From the NCBI RefSeq assembly GCF_036588685.1, contig NC_086375.1, positions 23,684,001 through 23,748,000 on the forward strand: 64,000 nucleotides of DNA, in the 5' to 3' direction. Every line of letters begins with the position of its first letter. Positions within the stretch are counted from its first letter, which is position 1. Both the position numbers and the translations under genes were made by a program. The notes below the pieces were generated by a model. It saw only the letters and a list, made by a program, of their open reading frames with translations. It had not been told where the DNA came from and ran no database searches. Shown piece after piece: positions 1,156 to 61,100 of the stretch. Source of the stretch: Mytilus trossulus. Its lineage: Eukaryota.

Positions 1156-4100
1156 CTGAAAAATAAACAAGATGCATTGTGTTAAAAAAAAAATTGTTTC
1201 CATTCACAATGAAAACTACCATCATAAATTCAACATTGTTTAGCAGACGGCGAAATTGTGACAATAATAATATGTCTTAATCATGACAGATCTAGTTAAA
1301 GACCTGACAAAATCTCTCGGATCTACATTTCATCTCAGACATTGTTTCAATTAGAAAAGTAAAAACATGACTTAATTCTGTTATTACTCAATTCTAAAAG
1401 TTCCTGGAACATTCTCAGAAACAGAGAGCGTAATCAAGACTGCCAAATGAAGAGGATTTCGTCAATTATCGACAATACGTGCCTGAAATTTTGATTCTGC
1501 TTTTATATTTGTATAGAAGTACTTCGTTCTGATTACATCGTGTAAAATTACAACGAGGGAATAAGTTATTTTTATAAAAAATACCAGTCTGACATTAGAC
1601 TTATTAAAGACAAACATCAATGGCATTCAACAATATTTTTAATCATATTTCCCAGGGTTTTGTATCTTTACAGAGTATTCACACGACAATACCACGTTCT
1701 TTATGTTTCGTAAATTTTTAATAAACAATCAAATATAACGCAAACAGCTATTTCTTATGATCAAAACATGAAGCAACAGGTCAATTTGCCCACAATTCAA
1801 CATTTCAAAATTCAATTTGTTTCTAGATGAGAGGATTTCGTGATTGGCATTGCTAGTATTATATTTGATTTGGAAACACTCACATAGGAATAATAGGTAT
1901 AGAATTTTAACGTCAGTCGAAAGCTTTTGGTATTCCGATGACAAACATAATTTGTTATGAGAATGAACGATTCTTGCAGCCTTCATTTTCTACGATTACT
2001 ACACAAGTAAACTGTAAATTTGATTGTATATATCTAAAGCAATTATTCGCAAGTTCATCAAGAATGTCAGTAACATTTGGACAAAAAAATAGGTTTTATC
2101 AGCGGGAGAATTCTGATCAAGTTTGTCAATAGCAAGCAACAGGATAAATTGTGTGACACCCAGAAATACTGTTATAAATGAATTCTTGATTGACCGGAAT
2201 ATTGATTTATGCAAATGATACCGTACATCAATCATACAAGCATTAAATAAGCATCAAGTCATTTGACAATTGTTGACAATGTGAAGCTTTTTACTTTACA
2301 AGTATCGTAATCTCTTATTACATAACCAACCTACCATTTGTCAAAGTTATGTAAAGAAACGACTCTGTGTGAAATTTATATCTATAATATAAATCGTAAA
2401 AAGTCTTCCGGTATTTTACTGAGTATAACGGAAAAAACTGTGGGAGTTATTTTCACAAGTAAATAGAGCTTTCTAATGAGTTCTCTTATCTCCTTACGCC
2501 AAAGTTTTCAACTTCTTGTTTGTAACACCATGGAAGTATTATATTGACAACATCATACATCCATGGTAACACCAATATACAGTCCATTTACTATGTATGG
2601 TATATAAAAATTTTGTTCTCATTTCAACCAGGATTGCCAACAGCCCATGGATAACTTTTTGTTTTCGCCTACTTGCTACTTTCACGAGTTAAAGGGGTTT
2701 TCCTTTTTTTGATTTCTTGTTGTTTTTAGTTGGTCACAGCTACTTAATAAGACAATTTTTGGGTTAATTTTGAAGCATGTTCTGTAACTACATATCCAGG
2801 GAAAATGTATATTCTGAAATCATGAATGATCATAGGGCCGTAGTTTTTTTATTTTTAGTTTTACGAACCCTCCTACCCTAATTTTTGCCAAATAGGAAAA
2901 AAAATAAAATTAAAAATGTTGATTTTTATTTTTTTTTTCTCCTCCAACCCAGTGTTTTTCATGCAAAAAAAATAAAATTTTAGTTCATAACTGCATGAAA
3001 GAATCTAAATTTATGCTCTTGGTGATTTAGTAAGTTGTTGCACATTGATTTTCAATTCAAACCTTGTCAAGAAAAAAAAAAATAGTTGCTAAACTAGTAG
3101 AAAATCTCCTGATGAAATATTTTTTTTTTTTTTTTATATTGACGGTTGGTATTAAAAAAAAAAATTAGCAGCAGCAGTTTTTTTTTTTGTTTTTTTTTCG
3201 TCCTCCTACCCATTGGTTTTGTCAAAAAATTTCGTAAAACTAAAAATATAATAACTATGGCCTAGCTGCAACTTTATGCATATAATCTTGATGTCATTTT
3301 TGATGCATGTTATCCAGAGAGAAAGTGTCCATATATATGAGCAACTACTGTTTATCAGAACCATGAATTAATATATTTTGGGTAATTTTTACTAAATTGT
3401 TGAGTAAAAGTTTGGTTATTTGCCATTTGTGGCAACATTCTTAATTAAAGCAATTGCTTAATACATTTTGAGCAAATTTTTCATAATATTCATAGCAAGA
3501 CTTTTACAGTAAATAAATTTTACTTTTTAGAAAATTTATATTAACTTGTGGTAGATCTGTAGCTTAATTAAGGAGATATGAACCTGACGAATTTGAATTT
3601 TCTGCGCAACTCGAACTGTCGGTAAAATACAAAACTTATTATTGTACAAATAAATAATAAATACAAAATTTATAAAACGATTGAATATATTGAAACTTTT
3701 GTTATAAATGAAAGTTGTTTTATTATTGTTTGATGGAAATAATTTTGCGATCGCACGATTACGACATCGTTTAATTTCCGGCGCCATTTGTAAACAACAA
3801 CAGTCGTCTGCTGTAACGTAACGTTGGTAGCTGCAGTGATGACAAGAATACGTAAGCATGGCTTCAAATCTAAAAGATATCTGAAGGTGTCAGAGAGTCA
3901 ACATGCCCGATGGACCAAAACATCGACTTACTCTAATGATCACAACTATTTTTCCAGTAAGTAATCCATTTGATTCCCGAAAAATACACGACAACATCAA
4001 CACAAGTTTTACAACTACAATGAATAAATTATATACGTAAAATTATGTTGACCATAAAGATAATCTTTATATAGTATTAGTCCGAGATTGTTTTTACATC

Positions 4101-7100
4101 CAACGACTGTTTCGCCAAAAAAATCTTGGACTGAGGGGCCCTCACTGGCCAGCTTGTACAAGTTGTGGCAAAAAACCGTTGGACGTCAGAGCAATCTTGG
4201 ACTAATGAGTTTTAATACCAGTAACTGAGTAAGGTTAACATTTGCCTTCAAGAATAAATGTCCTGGACTAGCATGACAAGTCATATTTTAATTCCACTTT
4301 CAAAGGTCCTTTTCATTAAAAATCAAATACTTTCTCATAATCTTTATTATTATATTAACTGTAAAAGTTGAAGTTAGCCCCAGGATGTGAAGGGATCAAG
4401 TCTGTTTCACGCCTTGTCAAAATAATTATGACTGGCAAGGCTATTTTTTTTCTGGGACTCCTTCCTATGAGGTTGTCCCAAAAAAAAAAAAATAGCATTG
4501 CCAGACCTTATAATTATTTGGACTATTTTGTTCAATAAACATGTGTATTGTCCTTTCCTATGCCCATATAACCCTGCTCAGTCGCTCTGTAATTCTCCTA
4601 TCAAGGCTTAATAACAAGACCATGCATTATCAGCCACGTCACAATGTGAAAGGAGAAGTTATCAGGGATGTCACAATACAAGAGATGTTATCAAGCTTGC
4701 TTTTGTCAAGTGTAAAACTGTCTTAGGACGAGGGAAAAGACCAGTAACAGAACAATAAAAAGATAATCAAGTTTTCTTCTTTAATATAAATCGATATCAT
4801 AAAATATCAGCCACTCGACATAATGAGAAACATTCATAGGATCCAGGCCCCCTTTTGTGGGAAAAATTTGGTTGATTATATAGGGAATCATTGAAGCATG
4901 ACTGGAGCAGGCCCCCTCTTAGGTCAGTCAGAGGCCCCCCCCCCCCCCCCCCCCTTAGGAAAAGTTCTGGATCCACCACTGACATGTAGATCATTCCCTC
5001 GTAAAAAAGGTTCACTTTGTGGCTTGTGGCTGATATTTTAAAATATCAATGTCACATTGTGTAGAAAACCCCATAATCTATACTTACCACACACCTATGC
5101 GCCCTACGTCCATTCGCGCCTTACATATTTGCACCCAATTTTTGTTGAAATTCCAGTTGAATTATTAGATATATTTTTTCATATGTATATATATTCCCTA
5201 AAAAAATTATATAAATTTCCAAAATAAAATTGTGTCATAAGAGACATATCAAATGTTGTTTATGTTTTATCAAATGATGATTAATTATTAAATGTTATTT
5301 ATGTACATGTATGATTGCTGTTAATTGGTTAAAGCTTAATTTGGTCTCTTGCTTTGATATAAATACTGTAGCCAGGTATGAGTAAAACATTGAAGAATTT
5401 AAATGAAAAACATAAAAGATCGCAATACAAAAAAAAACCTGTCATAATAACACTTTATTTTGAAGAAATGAACAAAAATTATTTATACCAATATACTTTT
5501 TACCAAAACTCAATTACTAAATTATTATAAATCACAAAACCAATAAAAAGTGTGCAAAAGGACTTTGGGTGCGAACATGTAAGGTGTGAAAGGGACAAAC
5601 ATAATTGGACGTAAACATAATTTTGGGTGAACAGATCTGGATTCGATGTACATGTATAGGACACAGGGAAATAAAATCATAGAATTGACTGAGTATGCAG
5701 AACGAATGACTTGCACAAATTTGAACTCCTTCTTTATTCTAGATCTAGATAATCCATGCCTCCTTTCCCTATCCAAAAAAAAAATTGTTGCTCCGGTACA
5801 AATGTTAAAATTTACATAAGAACATTTATTCAACGTTTATGCGTGTCTCCAGCATTTTAAGACAGGATATATTGTACTTATTCATCACTTACCGGAATAT
5901 GTAATTTCACTTCAGGGGGGGGGGGGGGGAGGGGGGTTTAATGCTACCAATCAAATCATTTTATCAAAATTTAATACTTACAGGTTGTTGGGGAAAATCT
6001 GGATTCAAAATATTTGTATTTGTCATCTGCCTGACCAAAATATGTGTTTAGGAAATAAATCCCTTTGAATTTAAATAGAAATGTTGCCTAAAATTATTTT
6101 TCTAGGGGTGGGGAGCATGATTGATAAAAATAGCTAGTAATAATCATAATAATAAATATATTCTATTAAAATCTGTAAATACATAACATGTATCACACCT
6201 AAAATTTTATACAATTGAAAGTGCATCATCCGATTCTAATAAATATGATAAAAACAAAAACCAAAATTTCTGATTATTAAAACTAAGCTACTTCCAATAA
6301 CAAGGCTTTATATGGGTGGGTCTTTATTATAGGTTTGACTTTCTTGATTTGAATTCAATGAAATTTTGTAACTTTTTGAACAGTTTATATGTAATGTATG
6401 TATATATATACTAGTCTCCTTTTGGGGGTTTGACAACAAAACGAAGCTTATATTTGTAATATATATCATGTAACCAGACTTAAAATAATTTTCTTTATTC
6501 TATGTTTATTGCCACAGTGCACAAAGAAAACCTGACAAAAACAAAATTTCTGATTATTAAGACTAAGCTACTTCCAATAACAAGGCTTTATATGGGTGGG
6601 TCTTTATTATAGGTTTGACTTTCTTGATTTGAATTCAATGAAATTTTGTAACTTTTTGAACAGTATATATGTAATGTATGTATATATATACTAGTCTCCT
6701 TTTGGGGGTTTGACAACAAAACGAAGCTTATATTTGTAATATATATCATGTAACCAGACTTAAAATAATTTTCTTTATTCTATGTTTATTGCCACAGTGC
6801 ACAAAGAAAACCTGACAAAAACAAATTGAAAGAGGGAGGGCATATATTTTAATAAATTTACAGAAAAGCCTTTCAAATATGTACATGTACTTTTGTATGA
6901 AACATTGTATGTTTTATTTTTAAATTTCATATGACTTTAAATTAAGACAACAGTTGCATGTGAAATATTGACATGCCCCAAAACTAAACCTTCATAGGTT
7001 TTAGTCTATTATAATAACTCCTGAACTTATATGGGTCTCTCCGTCATTGTATCTTTTATTATTCATGCATGTTTACGATTAATGACACCAATAATGATGT

Positions 7101-10100
7101 GACTGTGATGGTTAATAAATGCACAATTATTCCAAAAATGACGGCAATGCATCCTAGTGGAGTATCATCACTCAGAGTATATAAACTTTATATATACATG
7201 TATATGAATGAATATAAAATGTATACATGTACATTGCACCTGCATTTATTATTGTTTTTTATAATTGCAGTTCCAAACATCTCAAATGCAACAAGGGAGG
7301 AAGAGGTTTCTTGTGAAGGAAAACAGACTAGGTCATCTGAAGACTGGAGAGAAGGGAGAAGAATTGTTGAGCTAGATGTCCTTGCCACTGGTCTAAGAGC
7401 ATGTCTTAAATGTGGTTTGCCCCTACAGCTTGGACATACTATTGACATACAGACATATGGTCTTGGATGTCTACTGAAAGTAAGTAATTCAGATTTAAAC
7501 AAAAAATCTAAAATGTCTGAACATTTCGAATGAATTCAGCTTGTCTTTCTATCCATCAAAAATAAAAAGACAATTTGATATGCATGTTCATACCTAAAGA
7601 AGCATTATAATAAAAAATAAAAAAAAGGATTTTAATATGACATGCTTCAAGTGTTTTAATAACAAACCGAGGATGTTACTATATATAACGGTATGACATG
7701 ACTTTAGTACTGACCATTTTTTCTATGTCTGCATTTTTGTCATTGAAAAGTAACATTGAAAAGATGGAGAGAGAGTAATGACATCTAATTTTGATGAGAT
7801 TTTTGTCATACAAATACTGACATTTGACCATTTGTCTCTTTATAAAATCAACTATTTTTTTTTCTTCAGGTACAGTGTTTTAATACCATTTGTATGCATG
7901 TAAACAGTGTTCCTACTGGAAAGCGTCATGACAGAGTATGGGATGTCAACAGTAAACTTGCAACAGGTACATGGACATGTATGCACAATATTATCCAGTC
8001 ATGTAAATATAGTCAATCAGCATCCAGGCAAATTTTTTTCACTATCACCTACATTTTCAGGGTTCACTTAGTTGTTTAAAGTTTATGTCATACATTACTA
8101 TATCTGAGCCATTATATTTATTAGGTCATATAAACTTGCTAGCATTTTCACAGATAGAGTTCTTGCAAGATTTTTATAAAATTTGTACTATAGAGCTAGT
8201 TTTGAAATGCTGGATGATTGACTTTTTGTCAAAAAGTTATGCCCCTTGAAAATATTAGATTTATGGAAAATGGCCTTGTTAGCACTCTATGGGAGCACAG
8301 TTCATGCCAGACTTTTGTATAACTTATACTCTTAGATTAATATCAGCAATATCTTGAAAAAAATTATAAAATGGTGGGACCTCAACTTTTTTTGTTAATA
8401 TAATTTTAAAACTATAAAATATGATTTAAAAAAATCATCAGCATTGCGAGATAAAAAATTATGCAAATATTCATCAAAATTTTACTGCATCATTATTTAG
8501 ATCATTGTATCTTTGATTTTTTTATTACAGCCCTTGTTCACTCTGGACTTGGAGAAAGACAAGCTAATAGTTTCCTATCAGAGCTAAATATTCCAGCATT
8601 TAGTTATAAACTGGTTAGTGCAAGACTGAAAGAAGTAGGGAATGTTGTTGAAGAGGTAGCCAAGGAATCAACAAATGAAGCACTGGAGAAAGAATTGGCA
8701 GCTGTAGAACAGTATGTACCTAAAAATAATAAAAATGAAAACATTAAACTAAACTCAAATTCAACAATGGGATACTTATAATTTAACTTATAATGATAAA
8801 AAAGAAGATGTGGTTGCAAATGAGACAACTCTCCACAAGAGACCAAATTAAACACAGAGATTAACAACTACAGGTCACTGTGAAGCCTTCGACAATGAGC
8901 AAAGCCCATACCTCATAGTCAGCTAAAAAAAGGCCTGAAATGACCATGTAAAACAGTCAAACAAGAAAACTAAAAGCCTTATTTTACATTAAAAAATATC
9001 TACAAAAAACAAATATGTAACACATAAACAAATGACAACCACTGAATTACCGGCTCCTGACCTGGGAAAGGCACATACATACATAATATAGTGTGTGTGT
9101 GTGTGTGTGTGTGGGGGTGATCATGTTAGTTGGATCATAATCCCCCCTAACCTTGGGCAGTGGTATAACAGTACAATATAGTTAGCATTGATTGAATTTA
9201 AATTTTTCATGCACTGTAAAAAAAAATAAGAAACACATTATTTTTATTATTCAGTAACTGAGACCTTCAGTTTTCATTATAAGAATTTGGAATGTGACTT
9301 AAAGTTATTTAGATTTCTAACATTTGACTAAATGATTTGATCCAATAATGCTTATGGTTAATATAGGTTTGGACACAAAGACAATATATTTCTGACTACG
9401 ATTGACTATTCTTTTGATTTATACAATCTTTGACATCTCCAGTTACAGTTTGTATTATGTTTAGTTTATTTACTAGTACTTTTATAAATTACAGAAAGAA
9501 GGGTTCACTTGTGGTTGCTGTAGATGCAGGATGGCAGAAAAGAGGAAGTGGTAGAGCATATGACAGCAAATCAGGTATAACTAAACACCATCAGTTATAA
9601 GAATGAAAATATACATTGACATAACATCATATTACAGATAACACCAAGAAACAAAAAAAAACATGATGGTCTTTCATGTCAAATATTTATATCTTTCTAG
9701 TCAGGTTGAGTCAATGGACTGTTATAAGGTCAAATATCAATTAAACAAACATTAACTACATTTACAAATATGCCATTTGGAAATGATGAATAGTTGTCGT
9801 ATTGGCTATTGCTGATCATTACTTATTTCCTTATTTTTGTCAAGCTTGAGACTTTTGTTGCAGAAAGCTAAAGATAGGAATAGTGATCTGGCATTTTCGG
9901 TGGTGTTAACTTTCTTCTTAAAAGCTTTATATTTTAAAAGATTGAAGACCTGTATGTTCATACTTTGTATAAGCTGCCTTATGTTAAGAAATTTCCTTCT
10001 GTCACATGTCTATTGTCTTTGACCATATTTTCATGGTTCGGTGTCCAATTGAGAAAAAAGTTAAGGTGAACATGTCCAACTGTCAGGTGCCATCTGACCT

Positions 10101-13100
10101 TGACTTATGTATATAAATATTATTTATAAGATTAAAATTATTTATTAAATATCTTATGTTTTGATATGTAGTAAAGAAAATATCTCAGATATCTTATAAA
10201 AACCAGATTACATAAGATATCTTGAAGTTAGAATAAATAGTAAAACGGCTTGCCATAATAAATACATATCATAAACAGTTTGATTTAAGAACTTGTTTTT
10301 AATTACTAGGTCATTGTTCCATGATTGGTCCAGAGACGGGAAAAATTATAAACTACTCCGTAAGATCAAAAGAGTGCAGAGTTTGCAGTAGAGCAGAATC
10401 CAGAAATGAAAGTCCAAGAGAGCATGCATGCTACCGTAACTGGGAAGGTAGTTCAAAGGGGATGGAGGCTGATATGGTGATAGAAATGGTGAAAGATGTA
10501 CAGAGTAAAGGCTGTACAGTAGCTGCATTAGTTGGAGATGAGGATTCAACAACAATAGGACGAGTACGGGCAAACATCAGTAATAGCATTGAAAAGATAT
10601 CTGATAGAAATCACTTAAAGAAGATTCTTGGAAACAGTCTTTACTCTCTTAAGAAAAATCATCCTGTTTTAACAGTTAGAATAATCAAATATTTACAAAG
10701 TTGCTTTAACTATATAATAGCCCAAGGTGAAGGTAATCCAGAACAAGTAGCAAAAGATCTCAATGCACTTTCGAAACATCCTTTTGGTGATCATCAATGC
10801 TGCTCAAGTCGATGGTGTAAATTTCTCAGCAATCCAAAGTCTGTTTTTAAATCATTTCCTCAAGGAAAACCTCTGTCGGGTTCAGGTCTACAAAAGTCTC
10901 TGGAAAGTGTTTTTGAAGGATATGCTAAGAACAGCCTTAAATTGTCAACTGTCGGTAGTACTCAAGCTAATGAGAGTTTCAACAGAATGGTTTCTGCTAA
11001 AGCACCAAAGCATGTTCATTACAGTTCTTCTGGAAATTTGAATTACAGAGTTGCAGCAAGTGTTGCCCAGAAGAACACAGGTCACAGATACCTAGTTAAT
11101 GTAAGTTTTACTACATTGAATTCATTATTATTTGTGGGATACTAATTTTCGTGGGTTTCGAGGGTACATGTGAACCATTTAAATTTTTCATGAATAACAT
11201 ATTCGTAATAGGCTATGTATACAGAGATTGGAAAAACTATGAAATCAAATACCCACAAATTTGCAAGTTTTCAGCAAACCACATAAATTGATATCCACGA
11301 AAATAAATGAATCCACAGTATATTTGTTAGAGCCCCTACTTGAAAAGGGGGCAGTATATAGTGTTTGTGGTGTCCTTGTGGCCACCCATTTGTCTGAAGA
11401 CATAGCAGATTTGCATATTTCCCAACCTTTTTTATTACAACAACTTTTTAAGAGTTATGGGACTTTGACTGTGGCTCATCAAATTCAAATAAACATCCAA
11501 GGCAAATATCTTTGTATGTAGAAGCAGCATAAATTGTAAAGATAAGAACTTATCTGAAAACTTCACATTATGTTGACATAACACCTCTGTCTTGTTTTTG
11601 CAGGTCAGCATTCAAAAGAATAATTACTCTTGTAGTGTAGATCTGTTTACTTAATAGCACTTATTATTTTGTTTTTTTGTAAGAAAAAATAGTTAATATA
11701 AATATGAAGTCTTATTTGTTATTTTTCCTTTTTCAGGTTAATAAGAAGTTGGGGCTTTCACCAGGTTACCATACTCAGCGCCTTGCCAGATTAAGAGATT
11801 ATCAGCGATCAAAGCAGAGGGCATTGGCAACTACAAGAGCATTTAAAAGAAAACGACTGGAAAAGAAAGCTAAGATGTAATTAATGCATATTTTATTTCA
11901 AAATATATCCCATTTATTTACCTGTGTATAAAAAAAAATATAATGTCCATTGAAAAAACATATTTTTCATTGTGGGATAACCTTACAAAACCACATCTAT
12001 TGAATAACCTTATTTTTCAAAGAGGAATAACCCTTGAAAAGTACAACTTCTAGCAATTAACCTCCAAAAGCCTCTTGTAACTCATAGATTAATACTGAAA
12101 CACCATATATATTTGCTGTTTCGTTTCAATTAAATCAGTAAAAAGCTTTTATTGAAATTAGATTTCATATTTTTATAACTTAAATGGTAGTTTTCAAGTC
12201 AAATAATATTGAATATTTAAAGCATAAAGACCCAAATGGTAAAAAAAAAGATTTGGTAACTATTTTTCTTGATAATTGAAATAAATCCTATTTCATTTAG
12301 GCACCAAAAGCTTGCATCTGCAGAAGTCAGAGAAGGTGTCTCCTATCAAACAGGATGTTCTCTTGATGCAGCAATATCGGATGATATTCAGTCTATTCCT
12401 GCACCAGTTATTACTCCAGAATATCTTCCTTTGGAACCAAAGACCTTGAATGACAGTTGCATGACATACTTTGATGTTGAAACAACAGGACTTGGTAAGG
12501 ATTACTCATTATGATGAAAGGCTTTAAGTATCTAAGAATTCAATACCTCTTTTTGTAGATTTGCTGGGGTGTAAAAGAATTGTCTGAAGTATAAAAAAGA
12601 AGATGTGGTATGATTGCCAATGAGACAACTATCCACAAAAGACCAAAATGACACAAACATTAACAACTATAGGTCACTGTACGGCCTTCAACAATGAGCA
12701 AAGCCCATTATTGTTAACCAATCAGAATAATGTGTTACAATGAAACATACATGTAATGTTATTATATATCTATATATGAGTAGATGTGGTTTGAATGCCA
12801 ATGTGACACCTCTGCATCTAAGTCTGCAACATGGAGCATTTGGTCGTACCTGACAACAAGCTATAAAGGACCAAAAAAGCATTGTTCTTTTAATTTGATA
12901 ACAATTGTTTGAATTATAGAAATTTAAAGGATTCTTCTAATACAGTTAATGTCATCCCAACTTTTCAAAACAGAAGTTCTTGTAAAAAATGTGGAAGGAG
13001 CCTGAAAGAACAGAGCTGGGCAACTGATCAACATAGATCACTGTGACATACATTTAACACTTCATCACATTTTGCTTTATTCAATGTTCAAGTTCATATA

Positions 13101-16100
13101 TCAGCATTTAGACTATATTTGGTAGGATAAAGCAACCTTGCATAAAGATGCATCAGGGATAGAAGGTCAGCTTCCAATCTAACTTGGGTTGCTGTTACTG
13201 ACATTTGATGCTTCTGAACTTATGACAATATTTTGAACAAGGTGGTAACTAATACTAAATGTAATTTGTCTAACAGGTAACTTTGAACCTCTAGATTATA
13301 TTATTTTTATTTCAGGCAGAGATTCTCACATAATACAGTTGTCTGCTGTCAACAGCCAAAACACAAAATTCAATAGATACATAAAACCAGCTAGACCTAT
13401 ATTACCACAAGCCTCAGAAGTGACTGGTTTGAAGTTTCAGAATGGGAAAATGTACCATGAGGATAGAGAAGTTCAGAGTATTGGAATTTCTAATGCCTTA
13501 AAAGCTTTTATTCTCTTTCTGAAAGAAATTCACAACACTGTACTTGTTGGGCATAACTCCAAAATTTTTGATGTTCCAATATTAATTAATGCACTTGAAA
13601 AAAATGGTCTACTTAATAACTTTATGTCATCAGTGAAAGGATTTATTGACACACTTCCTCTTTTCAAAGAGTGTATACCAAATCAACCATCATATTCACA
13701 GCCAAAAATTTATAACGCTTTATTTGGTGAACTGTATAGTGCTCATGATTCCATGGAAGATGTTGTGGCTCTACGTCGCTTATTTGAGAAAATATCACCT
13801 AGTCTTGTATTGAAATCCAAATTCTCTGGCACTAATGAATCTGTAATGCAGTTGTATCAACACAGAAACTGTACAAAAGGTTTGCTTACAACACTGAGAC
13901 CTCTAACAAATAGCAAAACTATAACGAACTGTATGGCTACGAAAATTGCTAGCAGTGGATTAGGTCTAAGCCATCTTAAACTGGCACATAAAAGAGACAG
14001 ACAACAAGGAATAGAGAATCTATTTACAGAATTATGTGGACATCCATCAAAAGCTCGTGTTACAAAGTCAAAAAAAATAATTCAAGCAACATCAATCTAT
14101 CTGAATGACTTTGAGGAATGAACTATAATACTCATGTATATATAGTTTTATTGACAAAATAGACTACTAAGCTTGATTTTATTTGTAGTTGATTTTTTTT
14201 TACAATATATCAAAATTTAGATGTAAAAAGAAATTGCAACTTGAGTAAGGGCACACCGGTGTCGTAAAATAATGACCACTTAAAGGCAGAAAAATATATC
14301 CTATCATATGGGTAATAAGGGTACTTTTTTTAAAACTTTACAAATCTACTGTACCCTACTTATGCTGTACATAAAAGATTATGATTGCAGACCAAAAGTG
14401 TACAGGGAAGATAACCAAACTTATGTTAGATTTGTTACGATTTATCAACATTTAGATGAAAAAAGAAATTGTAATTGAGTAAGGGCTGTGTCCTAAAATA
14501 ATGACCCCTTAAAGGCAAAAAATTATCCTATCATATGGGTAATAAGGGTACTTTTTATGTTCATTTTTAGCTTGAAATAGGGTAATTGGATGTTTCATTA
14601 AACTTTACACTTCTACTGTACACTACTTAGGCTGTACATAAAAGACTATGATTGCAGACCAAAAGTGTAAATGGAAGATAACCAATGTTATATCTTTAAA
14701 AGGGGGATATTCTCTGTCTCATTCCTAATTTATATAGTGAAAAGGGGGGGGGGTATCTAAATCTTGGGCAAATACCATTAAAATACCAAGAAAGGTCCTG
14801 CTGGATCTTTCTTACCTAACATATACTTTTTTTCTGACTTCAGAAAATAGCAAAAATAAATCATACATCTAGTAAAGCAGAATTATACACACATAAGGGA
14901 ATGTTCGAATATTCAGATTTAAAATTATTTCTTTGGACAAAGATAAAAAATAGAATATTTTATTCCCAATAACTTGGACATAAACTTTCTTAAAACATTT
15001 TAAAAGATAAAATAGTGAAAAGTACGGGAAAATTTTCCCTCCAAATTTCCACTATATAACCAGTCAAAATTTTCCTGCCATCTTTTGGCTTGATTTGAAA
15101 TTTTAGGTTTACAAAATTTATCTTTAGGGCAAAGTTACCACATTTTAAAGGTAAAATCATTTTATACTTTTATTATGTACTGTCTACTGCACCATTATTA
15201 GGTGGACAAACTCATCATAATTTGAGATGGTAAAGTTATATTTTTCCTGTTATTGTAACTTTTTTTCGAAATCATGTACCCATACTTTTTTTTCTGTAAT
15301 AATTTAGCTTACTGTAAAGGCTTTAAGATGATAACAAAAAAAAAGAAGATTAATTATTGCAAATTATATTTTATGTCATATATATGGGCCATGGTTGTTA
15401 TAAAATCAGTGAAAATTTATTAAATTTGGAAATTCTGGAATATCTTATTTGAACAAGTTTGTGTAATCTCATATTTTTTGGTTATTTACTGAATGCTGAT
15501 GCCATTGACATGTGAATACTACCAATAAATCAATTTCCAACAAATGCATTTACTCTTTTTTGTTGATTTTTATCCTTATATCCTTCTTCTACGAATATAC
15601 ACAAATATGGTATATTCAGAGGTCGTTGCCATGGAAACGGTGTCATGTACATGCCAATTTTATTTCATTTTTCTGACAATGGTTATTGTCCCTTTGAGTA
15701 CATACCCTTTTTATGTTACTTTAATTATTATTTTGTCAGGTTCATATCACCTTAATCAATTGAAGTTTACATGTTTATTAATTTACAATAGAAGAATTGT
15801 TACAATAAGCCATTTATCTGGTAATTAAATCATAATAATGCCCCGTTAAACCATTATGTCAGCTGAACATCTGACTTGAACTACAAAATTACGCAATATA
15901 AGTGATTGTTTTGTCACTTAAGTAAAACGTTTAAGGGATAATCTTATTTATAGTATTCAGTTATATAATAGAAAGGAAGGACAATGTGTACAAATTATTG
16001 ATATTTTACTGTGGATTTATGAATATTCATAAGGTACCAGTTTTTATAGATTTTGTCATTAGAGAGAAACCACAAATTTTCGATACTGTACTGGTATACA

Positions 16101-25100: not shown

Positions 25101-28100
25101 TTATCTATGCTTATTTATTGACAAATTTAGATCAATCTTCAAAAATATATAAACCAACTTTCAATGACGCAGATAAATTTCCAAGAAAATTCTGTTTCTA
25201 AACTTTAAGGTAGAAATATAAGTGTAATTACAAATTGTTTTTTACACTGTTCATTTTTTCAAACAATTCACCAAAGAACCACTACAAAAAAATCTTACAT
25301 GTTTTGTCTGAAAATGTACATAATTAAAATACTGCCCTTCCTCAAAGAAAATCCTTCACAGAATAAATTTATGGTAAAATCATTAAAAATATTTCAAAGC
25401 CATTAAAACATGTTCTTTTAGCTAGTTTAGTAAATGGTACATTAAGAAATTCTTGGAGTTCAAGTTGCTGTGAAGTCTGGAAAAATCCCAAAGTTTGACA
25501 AAAAAAATAAAAAACTTCAAGTAGGCAAACAGACAACAGCCTTTTTGTTGTTAATCGAATTACACCACCTGTTAATAAGTTTTATAAGAAGAAAGGACAG
25601 TCAAGACCAGAGTTCTGAAACTGGTGGTTTGAAGGTTTTGGCTACAAAAAAGTTTCATTTTTTTTCAAGGACCACAAGCGTAAAAAGATTTTGAGAACTC
25701 TGTTGAAGACTTTATTTTACTGAGCAATAGCTTCAGTGTGGGTCCTGGCTCTTACACACTGGGTTGTAGCTGTGTAAACCTTTTAGTGTGAAGTACAAAA
25801 AAATGTAGATACCTCTTTTTTTAACTACAATTTTATCTAGACACTTCAAAGACATATTCTTTGGGAATCCACTAGATTGTGGAAACAACTACCAAAGTTG
25901 GCAATTTTTTAAGGAAATGATGGTACAGAGAACAGAAAGACAGAACAATTGTTCCTATAATTTGTTTTTCTGTAAATTGAGATCTTGTAGATACCTACCT
26001 ATTTTTGAATGACCGTATGTAAAGACACACCCATCAGCACCACTAACCACGCCTTGTATGATTTCTGTCAGACTACTGGAACATAATTCACTCTACAAAA
26101 GGAACCATTAATAAATATAAGCAAACCTCAATACATTAGGTATAAGAGAAAAAGACTTCACACGATGAAAACTTCATGATTATTATCGTTTTTTATACAA
26201 GGTCCATAGATTCACATACCACTTTCCTCTCTCAAGTTTTTTCAATGTCATCTTTTGTGTACTGTACCTGTTTCACTTTTTTTTTTTAAATTTCAAGTAT
26301 TGGCTTTGCTCATTGTTTTTAAAAGTATTTGATGACCTATAGTTGTTAATTTCTGTGTCACTTGGTCTCTTGTGAAGAGTTGTCTCATTGGCAATAATAC
26401 CACATTTTCTTTTTTATATTTGTGAAAATCAATGAAATCCAACCTCCCTCCTAAATTTTTTTGTGGAGTGGTAAAGGGGGATAAGTCATTACTATAAACA
26501 TAGTTTTTACCTGTGAATCATCAGGAGAAAAGACAGCATCAAAGGCAAACATTTTAGGAGCTGATGTTTTTCTGTGTGCAGATGTTGGGATACCACTGGC
26601 TGTAGGATCAAATACTGTGATCTGTTTTCTGCGAGGATCTATAGATAGGAAGGAAGTTCCCTGGTCACTGTGATGGGTTGATGGACATATCTTTAACATG
26701 ACCTTCACCTGAAAATAATTAAATATACAATGTAACTATGGTATCAAATTATTTCAACTTTATATGAAGAAAAAACATTGATGTAGAAACCTATGATGTA
26801 TTTAAAAAAAAAGTAAAAAGAATCAAAGAAATATATTTCATTGTGGTTTATTAAATTTTCTTGGATGTCCCGAGGATGAGCCAAGCCACAAAATTGAAAA
26901 CATCATCTAGCTGGAAACAGGACTTTTCAAATATAAAAGAATGTACAAATAACATGGAGTCTCCAAATTCCTTTATGCCCTGCCCTGTTTTACTATGCCA
27001 GGTGCAAATCAATCAAGTACCAGTATAAAAAAATCAATTACTGAAACATGTGAAGAAAAGAAATTCTTAGAAGAAAAAAAGATAATTGATACATCATTCA
27101 AAAAAAAATTACATATTTATTGGCCTACTGTTCTCAAATCTTCTAAAAATAACAAATAACCCCAAAAAACTATTAATTTTCAACTTCATTAGTGTAAAAG
27201 TGCTTATCAACTTATTCATAAAACATGTTGCATGTGCAAGAATCCAGCAACACCATTAAATGAGCAGTTATGTTCTCATATCACAAGATGATTATTACAG
27301 TTGGTAAAATAGATAAAATATTGATAGATTAAATGTTCAACAGCAATACACATCTGTATAGTATGTAATTATAGAACAATTATATTTAGCGCCCTCTAGG
27401 GACTAATTGTTTTAATGACCAAATATGCTGTCTAGCAATACACATACAGGGCTAAAGACATTCAGTTCCGATATTCCCCGGAGTCTACTAAAATGGCTCC
27501 ATCTTCAGTTTGGTTTTTATAATATTTGACTTATCAACTTTATTTTTCCATTCCTATCTGATTTTTATTACCGTTTCGGGAATTTTATGCATATGGATAT
27601 TGCAAATTAATAAAGGAAAACGAATCAGGGAATAAGTTTTTTGTTTTAAAGACCAAGATAACATAAAAAGATGTACAATAAATGAACCTGATGCATCGAG
27701 TCTGGGAATTCCGAGGGAAAAAGTGCAATCCAACTGAGTGCTTTGTTTATGTTATTGTTTACACGTAGTTGATGTGTTTTATGGGCAATGCACGGCACCA
27801 GTTTTAACAGGGGATATATATTGCAGTTTTATTTTTCACAATTTTGCAATGTAAAGTATCTAATAATATTAAACTAGTGAAAATAATTTTCCATAATAGA
27901 TGAAAAAAGTTAAACTAAGAAAAAACAAACCAGAATCGTAACAGAAAATCAAAAAATGAGTATCCTATAAATTTTTCTGGTCTATAATTGAAGGAACCGG
28001 TAAAATCTTCCAATTTCTTTTACTATTACTAAAGAGAAATGACCATGAGCTAAATTTCTTTATAAAGGAAGATGAGATAGTATTTGATAAATTGCTTACA

Positions 28101-37100: not shown

Positions 37101-40100
37101 TTCACCAAAATACCCAATAGATTATTTTTCACAATTTAAAAAACAAAATGTCACATATAAATCATATTTTAACTGTACAAATTTCAAAAATATAACAAAG
37201 TATTAATCAACGGAAAAATCATACCTGTAATTTCTTGGCAGAGTATGCATAGTTCTCTGAGACATACCGATAAATAAAATGTGTTTCACTTTCTCACAGC
37301 TTCTCGTTCCCCAGAGTATGCTATAGCATTATCAAGCTAATATACTGGCACAGTATGGCATCAACCAAACTTATGGCCATTTTTATAGATTTTCTCCATC
37401 ATTTGTAAAATCTATCATCATTGTATTTGGTTAAAATAAAGTAAACAGCATTTAAGTTGGAACACACAAACATCAATTGTAACTTTTATCATCAGTCAAA
37501 CTCAATAGACAAATATGTCCCGAGAACTTTTTTGTCTCCTTGAGCGACTCCGCAACAGGTGTTAACTAAAATTAATTTTCTCACATCAGTCTTAGAGGAC
37601 TTGGCAATTTAGCAAATAGTCAATTATCCATTTAAAGACTTCTTAGCTTAGCTTTTTTGTTTACTTTTTGTCTGTCTTTTGATTATATGGCTTTATGTTA
37701 AAAACACATATAACTTGCAAAATCAAATTTAAAATGTTTTTTGACACATTGAACAGCAAAAGCCTTTTAAGAAGTGATACTTGTTTATCTTTAACACTAT
37801 TCCTGGTCAATTTAACAACAAAAGGTGCAATGATAAAATAAAACAGCAGAAAGAAAGAAAGAAAGAATGAAAGAAAAAAACAATATTTGTAGGAAGATAA
37901 GGCAATATAAAATTGCAGAAACCATTAATTGCTTTAATAACTTTTTTACTTTTGAAAATATCAAATTTCATCTAATCATCTCAAAAATTACGGTCAAAGG
38001 TATTCAAGACATAGTTGAAGACTCAAATGTTCAAAAAATCAATAAAAAACATGATGTTCTGTAAGATGCACAGAGCGAACATGATGTTCTGTAGAGCAGA
38101 GAATGAACATGATGTTCTGTAGAGCAGAGTCAACAGGATGTTCTGTAGAGCAAAGAATGAACATGATGTTCTGTAGGACAGAGAGTGAACAGGATGTTCT
38201 GTAGAGCAGAGAGTGAACAGGATGTTCTGTAGAGCAGAGAGTGAACAGGATGTTCTGTAGAGCAGAGAGTGAACAGGATGTTCTGTAGAGCAGAGAGTGA
38301 ACATGATATTCTGTAGAGAAGAGTGAAGAGGATGAACATGATGTTCTGTAGAGCAGAGAGTGAACAGGATGAACATGTCCTGTAGAGCAGAGAGTGAACA
38401 TGATGTTCTGTAGAGAAGAGTGAAGAGGATGAACATGATGTTCTGTAGAGCAGAGAGTGAACAGGATGAACATGTCCTGTAGAGCAGAGAGTGAACATGA
38501 TGTTCTGTAAAGCAGAGAGTGAACATGATGTTCTGTAAAGTAGAGAGTGAACAGGATATTCTGTAGAGCATGGTATGTTCACCAAAGAGACAACTTTCCA
38601 ACACAGATTTAATTTCCTAGAAATTAGCAACTATAGGTCAGCATACAGCCTTCAACAACGAGTAAAACCAATACTGCATGTTTAAAATAGATCTTGTATA
38701 AACCAGAATGGTTTATGTGGAGTTCTGGTAAATCTATTATACAGTAACCTGAGACAATTTGTTTCCCCAAAGCAATATTGATTTTGATACATAACAAATG
38801 TTTAAATATCACTTGATAAAATTTCAAATTTCAAAATAAAACAAATTGATTAGTTAAAGAACTTGAAGCAAGTTTACATACAATATACAATGTGATGAAT
38901 TAGATGCTTCGATAATTTCAGATTCCATGTTGAAACTAATTAACATGTTCCAGACTCTTTACACTATGGGTAAAATATATTCAAAGCTTAATTTTATAGC
39001 TGAACATTTATATTAATATGCAAGCAGTTGCAGTTTAATGTGTATCAACATCTGTACCTGAGCAGCCTTGGGGTATAAGCACATCTACCTTTTCAGACTT
39101 GTTTGTTACGGAAAGGTTACCAAGGTTAAATCCGTGGATACGGCAATGTATGCCAAAGACAAAATCTAGACGCAGCTAATTAAATAGAAAGAGAAATATT
39201 AACTAGAATCAGCTACTTGTCATTATCAACATTTGTTTCTTATAAAACGGCAGCAAATTAATAAACGTAGAAATATCTTAATATAAAAAGGATTAGAACA
39301 CAGGGTTCCTAGGGTGAACTTGATTGCTCATAGTAACATCATGTGTGACAATTTAAGTTTGTTTTATGATAATGTGCTACATGCGTAGGGGGAATGAAAC
39401 GTAAGAAATTGTGTCAGTTGTCCCCACCCATAACTGTAATTCAATCCTTAACTATGGTGATTGAACTAAGCTTTTAACTGGTACAGTGGTTATAACTCCA
39501 TGGTATTACAAGATCGATGGTAACTCAAATATTCTTGCACTTAAAAGACACCCTTGTAGATTTCGAAAAAAGAGTAGGATAATGCAGCTAGAAGGTAGTA
39601 CTCGCACCCACAAAGTGGAAAGGGATTAATAAAAGTTTGAATAACTTAAATAAATATGTTAAACTAACTCAAATATATTTTTTCTACTTTTGAAACCATA
39701 ACTCTTATCATCTGCGGTTTAATTATTTTTGGCTATTGGATGAGTCAGAATTTTGTTTTGGGCCTTTAATGTATCCATGTCAACAGCCTTCAACAATGAG
39801 CAAAACCCATATCCCATATCTAGACCGATATGGTGAGTCAGAGGTTGATGACTGTATTGTCTGCAGTAGCAGGACACATCTTTCTGACCTCGAGCCAAAC
39901 ATTCTTTACTCATGTTCCCCAAATGCTTTATGAAGCAGCAGCAAACAGCAATTTTTTTAGTCTTTTTTCATAAGACCAGATATCAAATCTGTGTTCTCCG
40001 TCCCAAGAAACAATCACGATTTAAGAGACCACCGAGGTAGTTGAAGTAAGAGAAAAACACTGCAAATCTGCATATATCTATTCTCATATACCTGTACACT

Positions 40101-52100: not shown

Positions 52101-55100
52101 TGAACTATAAATTCCCATCTGAAATTAGCTTCAGAAACGTTACATAAAATATTAAGAATTTATAGGCAAAAAACGAGCTATTATTTGGATAGTATATGTC
52201 AGCTTTTATTAATATAAAACTCAAATAAATATCTTTATTATCCATATAACTAAATAAATGTTAAAGTTTTACTCCTCGTACACATAAAACTGGTGTAACT
52301 TTCAAAAGAAATGGTTTCTCAGGTGCACAATCTTGAGACTACATGTTGAAGAACTGAGTTCTTATTTGCAGCAGACTATAAATTTCATTTCAATTACCAG
52401 TACACAAATTTACTTTCAATTCAATGAATTTTTTGTAACTTCTCAAATTTTCCAATAAGTGATACTTTCTGTGAGCTCTGTGCTTAATTCACACACCTAT
52501 TCCCCTACAAAGTTCCTGTTTTGGGAAATCCATTTTTAACTTTTATGAGATGCACAATGTCATCAAAAGTTGGGAAATTGTGAATTTTTCATGGATATCA
52601 AGAAACTGTCTTTCAAGTATACACAGTATATACGAAAATATGTGTGACACAAAATTTCTAAATCCAAAATATTAACCTTATACAAGAGTGCAAGACAGAC
52701 AAACAGAATGCATAAACTGGAAACCATAATGCCATCTACTTTTGTGTGTCAATGCCTGACCAAAAGTTGAATTTTTTTTCAAGCAATAGGAATGTATTTT
52801 TTTGTATCAATTCTTACCTTGCAAAAAAGGAAGCAGCTGCAGATGGTGGCGGTGATGACATCCGTGACGAATATCCTGGCGGGGGTGACATCATCCGTTG
52901 ATATGATCCTGGAGGTGGAGAACCAATTTGTTGATTAAAGGCAGGTACATTTTGAGGTGAACCCATCTGTTGATTAAACTGTGGCATATTTGGCGAGCCA
53001 ATCTGTTGATGTTGACCGTATTGAGGTGATCCCATGACCTGATTATAGTTCGGCTGGTTATGTTGAGGCATATGTGATGGTGACCCCATTTGTTGATTAA
53101 AATTTGGCTGGTTGTATTGAGGAATATTTGATGGTGATCCCATTTGTTGATTAAAATTTTGTTGGTTGTATTGAGGATTTTTTGACGGTGATCCCAATGC
53201 TTGATTCAAGTTTTGCTGGTTGTATTGAGGAACATTTGATGGTAATCCCATAGCTTGATGAAAATTTTGTTGTTTGTATTGCGGAATATTTGACGGAGAT
53301 CCCATCGCTTGATTAAAATTTTGCTGGTTGTATTGAGGTATATTTGTTGACATTCCAGGATTTGGCGGAGGTAAGTTCGGAGGCTGTGAGTAATACTGAT
53401 TCCTCATGTAAGTAGGTATTCCAGACACAGAATAATTATTTAACATATCCACTTGTCCATAATTTAATCCACTATGTTGTTGATCCACATTCATGTTTGG
53501 TTCTTCGTAGATGTGGTTATTGTTCTGCAATACATAAATAACAATAATCAAATAATGAAATGGAGCAATTTGATTGACGGTTAAAACCAGCTCTGACTAA
53601 TGTCATATATAGTCCCTTGTTATATCCACCCTTTAAAAAGAGGGTCAATCACTTACCCCAACTAGTTTCCAAAGTCAACTTTCAAAAAATTTATGCAGCG
53701 TTCATATTTGTGTCTCCTCAATACATTTATTTCATGTGCTGATGGTAGTACTGCTTTTTGGCAAGAACTTATTTCTCACTAAATCCCATCATAAACAAGT
53801 TCACTGTTTCTACTTTTGGAAAATGACATTAAGAAGTCTGTTTTCAGACTGTAGTTTGTTTCTTTCGCATAAATAACAGCTCACAAAGTCGTCAATGTAC
53901 TATTACTCAAATATATCCACTATAAAAGTCAGCGTTTTTAGGTAAAAAAAAACTTCTTACAAAGCATCAGTCAGCATTTATACGATTTCAATGAACTTTT
54001 ACGAAACATACTTATATAGATATATACAAATATATACAGAAAATAACCTCTAATTTTGTCTTCCTACAAGTCAATGTATTTTATAGACAATTAAACATGG
54101 TAATATACTTGTAGAGGGTGTATGTGGTATAAAAAATTTAGCATTTCATCAAAATTAAACAAGGAATTGTCGATAGATTGTACATGCATGTAGACTGTGG
54201 GATGTTCCTAATTCATCATCATTGTTTTAACATGCAAAACTAAATAGTTCTAATGACTTACTTCAAATGTAATTTTGAATACAAATTAAAATGATAATTC
54301 TTCGGCCTACACAAAAACAATGCATAATTGGCATATAGTTACAGAATTCAAGGGTTTATTTGTACTGATTGTCTTACATCAGTACCCATGCAAAAAGAAT
54401 AGTACATGAAAATCAGAAAGTATTCCCCCATGAATTTTTTTTAAAGCAAGAAAAGTTAATCACAAACTTTTTTGGTAAGAATTTAATGCATTTCAAATAA
54501 TTTTCAATAAACAAAGTGCTATACCCTTCTACCTTTAAGGGACATCACCTTATTAAAAACATTAGTTAAAATAGCTCTTGACAAATCTAAAATTGAACTG
54601 TCTAGAGGCAAGGAATTAAGTTTGCCATGTCTTTGATTAATGGTGTAAATAAAATACAGCATACCATTGTTAGAAACTATGAAATGATAAACTTCTCACA
54701 AAAGGCCAAAAAGCAGTAAAAACTCACTATGTTATGAACTTATCAGTTCAAAAATCTTTGTATGCAACATGACTTTTAAAGCCCTTATAATACATGCATT
54801 TTTACTAAACCAACCACTTATTTTCCCCTCATAAAAATCTTACATTATCTGACACAATTCTATTCCAAAACTGATAAGGTTCAAAATCCAGCTGAACTTT
54901 TAATGTCCATTGGGAATATGTAAATGTGTAACAAGATCACAGATAAGTCAATTCCAAAGCTTTTATATTCCATACAGAATTTCTTTATACTCCAAGAAGA
55001 TCTCTATCAATACTAGAAGAAACTTTTCTCTACATCAAAATCTCCGATTCCAATAAATTTGAAATTCAAATTTTTTGTAAGTGCATTACGATAGCGATTC

Positions 55101-58100: not shown

Positions 58101-61100
58101 CATGCTTAAAGAAAACAATCCATTTTCTTCAACCACCTGGTGATATTTTCAACAATTTGACAGTTTTTCGTCCCCAGGCTCCGGCTAATTTATCAAACTT
58201 GTGTTTACTTCTCTTATTAGATTAATTTGTCCAAACAAGTCGCTACTTTTTACCTATTCCTTTAAGATTTATCTATTAAACTTCCCGACTCATCATAAGG
58301 AGGCTTATCCGCGGGCATCCATTTCTTTCAACGTACTAATTTTATCTCTTGTACTGAAGGAATATTGTTTTGAACTTTTGATCATGATATTATTTTTTAT
58401 CACTAAGTTTACATCTTATAGGACGCGTGCAATCTCCACAGAAGTAAAATATGCTTCATAGAGCAGATCATCATGGCTCTGACTGATACATTCGAAGTGG
58501 AAAATTGATTTCCACAAATCTATTATAAAATTCACGACTGAAAATAAGGCAATAAGAAAGAACATCCGAAGTGATCCAATAATTTTCTAAAATATCAAAG
58601 ATTGTCCTTTATCAATACGTTGTTTAATTTTAATGATTTTTAAGTCAAGCAGAAATAATCAAATTTGTTCGCGAACCGAATTATAAAAAATACATGAATT
58701 TGGCTAGATAATATTATTATACATTTCACAGATTCAATTTAATTGTTTGCAATCTTGAATTTTACAGAAAATGAAAGCTTTCAGGCCTAAAGCATTAAAT
58801 GTGTATGAAACAAAAAAGTAAATTTAAAAGCCCTTTTAAAGAATTCCATTTAAAGTTTTATTTCTAAAACCAATTTGCTTAGCTAATTTTTTCTTTTTCC
58901 CTATTATTCATTTTGTCTATCTGACAGATAATTCAATACATTTTATAAACATTTTGACTAGAAGAAATTTATAACATTGACTGTATACAATTTTCTTTTT
59001 TATGACTTAAATTTAATTGTAAAAACATAAATCACTATTGCTAATGAACAGTCAAGAATACTATTCAAATCAATAGAAAAAGACCACTAAGCTATTACAA
59101 ATCTCATTGTTTGACCAATGTCCAGTTGTCGTTTGACCATTGTCCAGTGTTTTACATCATTATTTCAGGTTGAAGCAACGTTGACAAGTCTTTGTTGATG
59201 CTTAAAGAAGCATGAGTTGACACCTGGTTCAAGCATACTTCAGCAAGATTATAAATACTGATTAACGTTGACTATTTCCTCCTTAAAAATACCAATTACG
59301 CCTGCATGTGCACTGATCCCGCAACATTTCACTGGTCGCGATCAACTAATGAAAGCCTTTGTGACAAGTTGCAAAGCATGCAAGTGGCAATATTAAACGA
59401 CAATCATACTTTATATAAAGTCTTTTACTGAAGTGACACACACGCTATTGTCCTATACCCCCTCACGATAAAATAACATTGTAAATCGTTAACAATTATT
59501 AATGTAATTTATTAGCTTATCTCCTGAAATTCTTTATATTCCAAGTTCAAATCAGATCAACACATGTGCATGCATGGCCCCATCCCCCCTTTTTTTTCAA
59601 ATAGTCAACAATCTAATTCTTTTGTAATTTTAATGTAACATTAAATGGACTCACTTTTCAAAACGTTATGCTTTCAGAAAACAGTATTTCATTCTTCAGA
59701 TATCAAAGGTTCCATTAGATAAAATTTGACAGCGTTTGAAATAATTATTATAAAATTTTTACATTTAAACAAAGAGAATAATTTTTGAAAGGTTTCATCA
59801 AAATCATCTCAATATATCTGTATTGTTTAATGAAATTTAATTAAGAATCTAATTTCGGAATTTATAAAGTTTCACAAAAATGAAAAGCAATAATTTCTAG
59901 GCATCAGATGTTAGCCTTTCCAACTGTCAGCTTTAACTCAACGTTATTATGTAATAATTTTACATATAACCCAATTATAATAAAATTTATGAATTTTTTT
60001 GAGTGGTAATAGTGTCTTAATTCTACACTGTGTTTGTAATGACATCCTGCACTGTTCACGTTTTTGTTTGATGTCTGAAACTTCAATTGATTTATTTTTT
60101 TCTGTGTTTGATTTGGAAGTTTTTCGGTCCTCATAACATGTAATTTTGTCAAAAAACATGTAATTCACATAAAGAGAATATTACAGAGAAAAGTGGTCAC
60201 ACATTATCTGCTTCAAACAAAATTGTCTTCTGACGTGAACTTGACAAAAAATATATGAAGTTAATATTTGCCATAATGGTTGTCTCGGATAAAAAAGAAC
60301 ATTAAAATATTTCCTGTGGTATTTTGCTCTCATTTAATTCTTTTATAAATGATAATTTAATAATACTCTGAGCTATAAAATGTTAAGCACCATCAAATCA
60401 GAACATATAAAATGTAAGTCTTTTACTTATGTTTTTCCTTTATTGTAGATTTTCGTCAGATTATTATTTTCACATCAGTGCATACTTTTTTCATCGTAGG
60501 TACATACAACCCAAGATACTGCTTTTAACCATCCCTAACACAAAAGTGACAAAACCTCTAATTTTCCACCCTCAAGAACATAAAACATCAGATACTGTTT
60601 TCCCCTTGAAACATTAAAACCTCAGATACTGTTTAACCCCTTAGAACATAAAACCTCATATAATGTTTTTCCCTTTGGAACATAAAACCCCAGATAATTT
60701 TTTTCCCCTTAGACACATAAAACCTCAGATACTGTTTTTCCCTTTGGAACATAGATCCTCAGAAAAAGTTTTTCCCCTTTGGAACATAAAACCTCAGAAA
60801 CTTTTTTTCCCCTTGGAACATAAAAACCTCAGATACTATTTTTCCCCTTGGAACATAAAACCTCAGATACTGTTTTCCCCTTTGAACATAAAACCTCAGA
60901 TACGTTTTTTACCTCGAACATAAAACCTCAGATACTGTTTTCCCCTTTGAACATAAAACCTCAGATACGGTTTTTCCCTCGAACATAAAATCTTAGATAC
61001 GATTTTTGATGTCAGGAATGTGATTTAAACCTGGATGTTTTCACCCTTGGAATATACAAGTATTTTTTTTCTGTCGGAATATAAAACCCCAGATATTGTT

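Follow-up and report, generated by a model that had tools for sequence, protein, structure and literature searches.

The 64,000-nucleotide stretch of the Mytilus trossulus genome analysed here (assembly GCF_036588685.1, contig NC_086375.1, positions 23,684,001 to 23,748,000, forward strand; hereafter the window) contains a DNA transposon of 12,180 bp at 3572-15751, with 17-bp terminal inverted repeats (TIRs) and a TTAA duplication on either side. Its gene encodes one fused, spliced and intact protein that carries two sets of catalytic residues, those of a DDE transposase and those of a DEDDh exonuclease. The element is almost certainly a KolobokD, an already named type, in an unusually well preserved copy. 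On sequence and model comparisons, there can be very little doubt that its nuclease module shares ancestry with the C-terminal domain of vertebrate PML and with fish Plex9, and KolobokD was probably the source family of that domain.

Homology of the nuclease module to PML and Plex9

All five DEDDh residues (D597, E599, D689, H747 and D752) are present and the module matches PF00929. The ExoI motif (DVETTGL) closes exon 8; ExoIII reads AHDSMED and is followed in exon 9 by a tail of about 120 amino acids (aa) with the words TLRPL...RVTKSKK, as a preliminary description made from the DNA letters had reported. That description likened the exonuclease and tail (12301..14121) to the PML C-terminus and Plex9, and noted that they were still attached to a transposase and inside TIRs. 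These observations were borne out by the PML_C, profile, fold and intron results given below, by the PF20700 match of exon 6 and a spliced contig running from exon 6 to exon 9, and by TIRs that pair at 16/17 bases between two TTAA sites.

The tail (exon 9 residues 190-263) matched the Pfam model PML_C (PF25244) with 88.8 bits (E 2.8e-25, cut-off 27.1). Such a likeness could in principle be generic DEDDh similarity combined with a Pfam label inflated by transposon sequences. Two results weigh on that side and against homology: PML_C scored the whole mussel protein above gar PML (85 versus 64 bits), and the tail alone aligned weakly with gar by BLAST (31% identity over 45 aa, E 2e-4). Because the PML_C model leans towards transposon-type sequences, a separate tail profile was built from 51 transposase-linked non-vertebrate proteins, with no vertebrate rows. 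It still recovered six of eight vertebrate proteins at 33-44 bits (gar PML, two shark or skate PMLs, sturgeon PML, and paddlefish and ray proteins), the best of 300 shuffles reaching 4.3; the two teleost Plex9 proteins did not match this profile. When exon 9 alone was compared with solved structures, four chains were found at E 4e-32 to 6e-24 (two are zebrafish Plex9.1 and one agrees with a fish protein sequence), far above TREX1 (1e-3). No publication for PDB 9L85-9L8D was found in the literature searched. With the shared intron position described below, these results already largely refute generic similarity, which we consider extremely improbable.

With the tail included, residues 586-871 share 36% identity with gar PML across 250 aa. 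The AlphaFold model of the corresponding domain of M. trossulus protein P0031 (99% identical to that of the window) has a predicted local distance difference test score (pLDDT) of 95.7. In a fold search, its best match was zebrafish Plex9.1 (Z 28.8, root-mean-square deviation (rmsd) 1.1, 37% identity), with Exuperantia (Exu, Z 25.0 over the whole length) and TREX1 (Z 21.4) at lower ranks. Together with the PML_C match of the tail, this dispels the concern, raised in the preliminary description, that no profile or structural counterpart would be found. Folded alone and without an alignment, the tail reached a pLDDT of 53 and gave no meaningful Foldseek match; because this fold was uninformative, the label SAM-like rests on the full model and on the human PXL paper (PMC13659232).

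Three papers are cited here from the available parts of their text: PMC10123124 (NAR 2023) on PML evolution, PMC13659232 (NAR 2026) on the PXL domain of human PML-1, and PMC9587614 (Mob DNA 2022) on KolobokD. Fish PML/Plex9 (PMC10123124) have in common with the mussel module the fold, 36-43% identity, intact DEDDh residues and an intron inferred at the same codon, and the PML_C tail is also found in gar, sturgeon, paddlefish and shark or ray proteins; they differ in being host genes, RBCC-fused (RING, B-box, coiled-coil) or free-standing, with no transposase or TIRs, and the tested teleost Plex9 proteins lack the tail. Human PXL is described as EXO + SAM-like, its closest structures being those of Exu, Plex9.1 and TREX1 (PMC13659232). 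It shares with the mussel module the EXO domain, the SAM-like helical bundle and an exon junction 6 codons past Asp614, and differs in being catalytically dead and in binding G-rich RNA and DNA; it is likened here by description, its structure being absent from the fold matches. Drosophila Exu (PDB 5L80) is likewise built of EXO+SAM and aligns with the model from residue 1 to 281 (Z 25.0), but is a pseudo-nuclease with 20% identity and an rmsd of 10.5 over both domains. TREX1/TREX2 have the DEDDh fold (Z about 21) but are about 21% identical, with no PML_C tail matched. Of the kinship proposed earlier with both PML- and TREX1-type enzymes, the closeness to PML and Plex9 stands and TREX1 proves a far more distant relative than Plex9.

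In a reciprocal search with gar PML residues 499-766, the 36 hits comprised 4 vertebrate entries, then 15 other proteins (13 of them with PF20700), and finally 17 weaker DnaQ-type proteins, read as bacterial. By sequence, the closest non-vertebrate matches of gar PML are KolobokD proteins. Among the best 150 of 2558 representatives, a transposase remnant (at least 20 bits) was detected in 43 and an RBCC part in 5, and many were single-exon gene calls. Orthology to PML (TRIM19) itself was excluded: the RING/B-box/coiled-coil N-terminus is missing, and in place of the RING, B-box and PML_CC of gar and shark PML, P0031 has PF20700. With a DEDDh core nearer to Plex9 than to TREX and a PML_C tail, the module falls in the PML-CDE/Plex9 domain family, and database labels 'protein PML-like' exist for mussel proteins. 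Homology to PML/Plex9 is concluded from the Pfam match, the reciprocal search, the vertebrate-free profile, the fold and the intron position taken together.

Intron 8 is a phase 1 intron inside the seventh codon past the first ExoI Asp (D+7). In a survey of the mussel genome (52 rows from 60 loci), a GT-AG intron was present at D+7 in five divergent families and absent in six, and three loci or families were ambiguous. At the protein level, gene calls with and without splicing diverge at the same codon in three fish Plex9 clusters. The first shared residue is D+7 in three pairs from two clusters; in the third it is D+8 with an altered D+7, as expected for phase 1. Two metagenome scans for fish Plex9 DNA yielded no fish locus. 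In human PML the exon 8a/9 junction lies 6 codons past the retained Asp614 (PMC13659232). By our own alignment, D614-L-K616 would correspond to the ExoI D-x-E and codon 621 to D+7, and a sturgeon PML with FFDLKTTG backs this alignment. The shared intron shows that these sequences go back to a single spliced gene and says nothing on direction. Its use as a synapomorphy was rejected, as the intron is seemingly present near the other nuclease subgroup and parts of subgroup B lack it (see below).

Phylogeny and direction of transfer

For FastTree, 140 rows passed the coverage and ExoI filters, and removal of rows more than 70% identical left 124. The vertebrate clade (support 99) is sister to KolobokD subgroup B (98) with a joint support of 88, and the two are nested among other KolobokD; the window protein sits in a different subgroup from B. 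IQ-TREE with 38 picked rows and no bacteria gave 100/99 for a vertebrate clade that excludes the mussel protein, 93/84 for B and 94/92 for vertebrates plus B. Median identity was 46.6% for vertebrate domains, 43.3% for subgroup B and 37.5% for other transposase-linked rows. On these alignments, a position of PML/Plex9 inside KolobokD is suggested, not shown. Regarding the phylogeny proposed in the preliminary description, the feared grouping with unrelated DnaQ families did not appear, and nesting within transposon sequences is unproven.

Several points weigh against such nesting and against an origin in transposons. The sample was derived from the gar query and favours PML relatives. Bacterial outgroups, basal in FastTree, fell among or inside the vertebrates in IQ-TREE mixture-model trees. 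Transposase trees were rooted on KolobokE-like and KolobokP-like sequences of the mussel genome (labelled by motifs and tandem layout); B and the window group were joined at 97/94 when a single outgroup set was used (27 rows), and this support was lost with three (30 rows). A basal subgroup B was not rejected by approximately unbiased (AU) tests (p 0.49; p 0.26) and would allow the vertebrates to be sister to all KolobokD. The intron is missing from six mussel families and does not polarise the tree, and its position in fish is inferred from protein calls, not DNA. A transposase remnant was found in 0/21 vertebrate-clade rows, with no intermediate, and host genes of the EXO+SAM type do occur elsewhere, as Exu shows. 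Two rootings were set aside: that on bacterial DnaQ-like proteins was judged a long-branch artefact, and that via the transposase tree was suggestive, with non-significant AU tests. A search for a mussel Exu outgroup (PF18609) gave no match, and neither did its control.

Transfer from transposon to host, with KolobokD as the source family of the PML/Plex9 nuclease domain, is the reading that we consider probable. It is favoured because of the distribution and diversity of the sequences and the precedent of P2X7, whose tail was formerly the Kolobok protein KolX. PML and Plex9 are reported from jawed vertebrates only (PMC10123124). In an early jawed vertebrate, the last two exons of an element of the KolobokD lineage would have stayed behind, been spliced onto a TRIM RBCC gene to give PML and also been retained as stand-alone Plex9 genes. 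The mobile reservoir for the PML domain envisaged in the preliminary description is plausible in kind; the root is not fixed, and this particular element lies outside the subgroup adjoining PML/Plex9.

The same trees would accommodate an old animal host EXO+SAM nuclease gene, related to Exuperantia, that was captured once by a Kolobok, PML and Plex9 descending from the host copy. Its appeal lies in the unfixed root, in an Exu that has the same layout and covers the whole model, in a spliceosomal intron, which suits an element and a host gene equally, and in relatives without a transposase, seen in two snails, one isopod and one cricket. However, the transposase-free invertebrate proteins are scattered in the tree and do not join the vertebrates in a single clade of orthologues; the best mussel nuclease matches examined belong, with few exceptions, to multi-copy or transposase-linked families; and host gene loss would be required in cyclostomes and many invertebrates. 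We regard this descent from a host gene as unlikely.

Transposase-free invertebrate nucleases were observed in several hosts. In the cricket Anabrus simplex, P0081, P0086 and P0090 lack a transposase and have EXO(+SAM) domains that are arranged in tandem and partly degenerate; P0090 gets a better score from the Exu models than from PML_C, and these proteins are possible independent domestications or Exu paralogues. Other transposase-free nucleases pair across species in FastTree: P0162 (Littorina) with P0173 (Babylonia), and P0136 (Armadillidium) with P0166 (support 99 and 98). The snail and isopod proteins are candidate domesticated genes. Domestication of this mobile module may have happened separately in snails, an isopod and a cricket, and the module is also a possible origin of arthropod Exuperantia.

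Structure, family and copies of the element

The gene consists of nine exons on the + strand (Table 1) with GT-AG introns throughout, and the joined frame of 871 aa has no internal stop. It differs at 3 residues from P0031 (871 aa), which scores 304 bits against PF20700. Zinc finger motifs lie at residues 251 and 390, and DRNH at 327-330.

Table 1. Coordinates of the element and its gene in the window
Feature	Position	Strand	Evidence
Left target-site duplication, TTAA	3568..3571	none	
Left terminal inverted repeat, 17 bp, begins GG	3572..3588	+	13 exact genomic left ends, flanks all different
Exon 1: start codon, basic N-terminus	3839..3956	+	Agrees with P0031
Exon 2	7271..7479	+	Gene model, P0031
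Exon 3	7870..7966	+	Gene model, P0031
Exon 4: N-terminal transposase part	8531..8711	+	PF20700 E 1.1e-9
Exon 5: putative first catalytic Asp D212 (DAGW; role by alignment)	9495..9574	+	
Exon 6: CCHC zinc finger, D305, DxxH (D327/H330), second zinc finger, E450	10310..11100	+	PF20700 E 1.9e-50
Exon 7: basic linker past transposase core	11737..11876	+	Gene model; splice joints
Exon 8: linker and ExoI (D597, E599); phase-1 donor within codon D+7	12301..12494	+	
Intron 8: 821 bp, GT-AG, phase 1	12495..13315	+	
Exon 9: ExoII D689, ExoIII H747/D752, helical PML_C tail (~13885-14109), stop	13316..14121	+	
Right terminal inverted repeat, ends CC	15735..15751	-	9 exact genomic right ends
Right target-site duplication, TTAA	15752..15755	none	

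Splicing was assessed in contigs from runs that are only guessed to be RNA, and the contigs may derive from other copies or related species. Intron 8 was removed with GT..AG ends in contigs from three of these runs (X1, X4 and X2), and X2 also joins 11100-11737 and 11876-12301 (introns 6 and 7). Single contigs span exon 6 to exon 9, which places transposase and nuclease on the same spliced sequence. In two runs, the raw RNA reads covered the exons at very low depth. The annotated M. trossulus protein P0046 ('hemicentin-1-like') terminates in a piece of the element's exons 7-9; the junction is probably a gene-model fusion and possibly a real exon capture.

The Kolobok superfamily is characterised by TTAA duplications and 5'-RR...YY-3' termini, and KolobokD is its lineage with a DEDDh exonuclease, known from molluscs, arthropods and cnidarians, with one zinc finger (CCHC) following the first Asp and another following DxxH; other lineages carry unrelated nucleases or none (PMC9587614). 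The element has the TTAA duplication, GG...CC TIR ends, a DDE transposase (D212, D305, E450) with DxxH, both zinc fingers, a DEDDh (DnaQ) exonuclease and a mollusc host, and no difference in kind from KolobokD was seen. This described type had been missed in the preliminary description. The paper naming KolobokD is reportedly by Kojima and Bao. KolobokP was ruled out by the nuclease, which is DEDDh and not a His-Me finger, and no KolobokP-type long terminal direct repeats bound the element among the repeat families listed.

The same mussel genome contains at least eleven divergent KolobokD-type nuclease families, from both main subgroups, with the ExoI intron in some only. It also contains long tandem arrays of near-identical PF20700 transposase genes at ~4-4.7 kb spacing, resembling KolobokP multimers as described (contig C1 at 16.03-16.10 Mb, 22.31-22.38 Mb and 55.01-55.03 Mb; contigs C303 and C504).

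The TIRs form the sole such pair with TTAA among 763 x 763 TTAA sites of the window. Exact element ends occur 22 times in the genome, every flank being different (reversed control, 0), and paired ends with TTAA were found at five further genomic sites. Exon 9 has 16 genome matches, nine of them full-length at 96-100% (window's own copy counted). Of ten other copies fetched, three have all nine exons open, one has all exons with one stop, four have deletions, and two lack exon 1 within the fetched stretch. From these ends and copies, the family would be young and is probably still competent. No empty insertion site was present among the joints listed for four contig runs.

Within the element, intron 1 contains a 280-bp tandem duplication (99%) at 6257-6816, and two copies of a very abundant short interspersed repeat are nested in introns (~8811-8930 and 12574-12708); more copies lie near 17790, 26350, 34670, 38620, 43170 and 47540. 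Exon-like frames of a kinesin motor gene flank the element on both sides on the - strand (1010-1156, 25958-26092 and 26454-26735). Two of the kinesin-like frames gave weak PF00225 matches in the correct order (E 0.08 and 0.014), and the transposon likely lies antisense within an intron of this gene, which we take to be KIF26-like. Elsewhere in the window, tandem repeats were found at 38028-38598, 52943-53400 and 60564-61130 (periods 28, 54 and 34 bp, respectively); the 54-bp array is inside a 260-aa stop-free frame (- strand, 52817-53596) with no Pfam match.

Predicted role of the nuclease and implications

The DDE transposase would cut at the terminal repeats and integrate the element into TTAA sites. 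The nuclease fused to it, predicted to be a 3'-5' exonuclease of the DEDDh type, would trim or remove 3' DNA ends left free during transposition, and the SAM-like helical tail may bind nucleic acid as in PXL and Exu, holding the nuclease in place. The KolobokD authors propose the same role for the exonuclease in transposition (PMC9587614), and we give 3' end-trimming an even chance. A counter-measure is also conceivable: the nuclease may degrade stray DNA (excised copies, rival retroelement cDNA or immune-stimulating DNA), so that the element is better tolerated, and this would have prepared the nuclease for use in host defence. In fish, PML and Plex9.1 degrade single- and double-stranded DNA and restrict LINE-1 (L1) (PMC10123124), and with other Kolobok lineages carrying unrelated nucleases or none, DEDDh is not needed by the superfamily (PMC9587614). 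However, the nuclease is covalently fused to the transposase in a single frame, and D, E, D and D are kept in 97/97 non-vertebrate rows (the first two partly via the row filter); this conservation and the fusion fit a role at the transposition complex. The counter-measure, the chief rival of end-trimming, is considered rather unlikely, and end-trimming and stray-DNA clearing are not mutually exclusive.

The element type itself is known; the intact multi-copy element, the intron coincidence and the explicit test of nesting are what the present analysis adds. No literature stating that PML/Plex9 derive from KolobokD was found, most subscription papers being outside the reach of the search. The PML-evolution paper places the appearance of the domain in jawed vertebrates, its source unnamed, and in its available text the words 'transposase', 'Kolobok' and 'invertebrate' have 0 occurrences (PMC10123124). 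In the KolobokD paper, the nuclease is set beside Exu, TREX and ERI1; in the available text PML has 0 occurrences and the helical tail is unmentioned (PMC9587614).

The intact, multi-copy and spliced copy described here provides material with which the role of the nuclease in transposition and in L1 restriction could be tested. If the derivation from KolobokD is true, PML, a major tumour-suppressor and antiviral protein, would be, like P2X7, a vertebrate protein whose tail came from a Kolobok.

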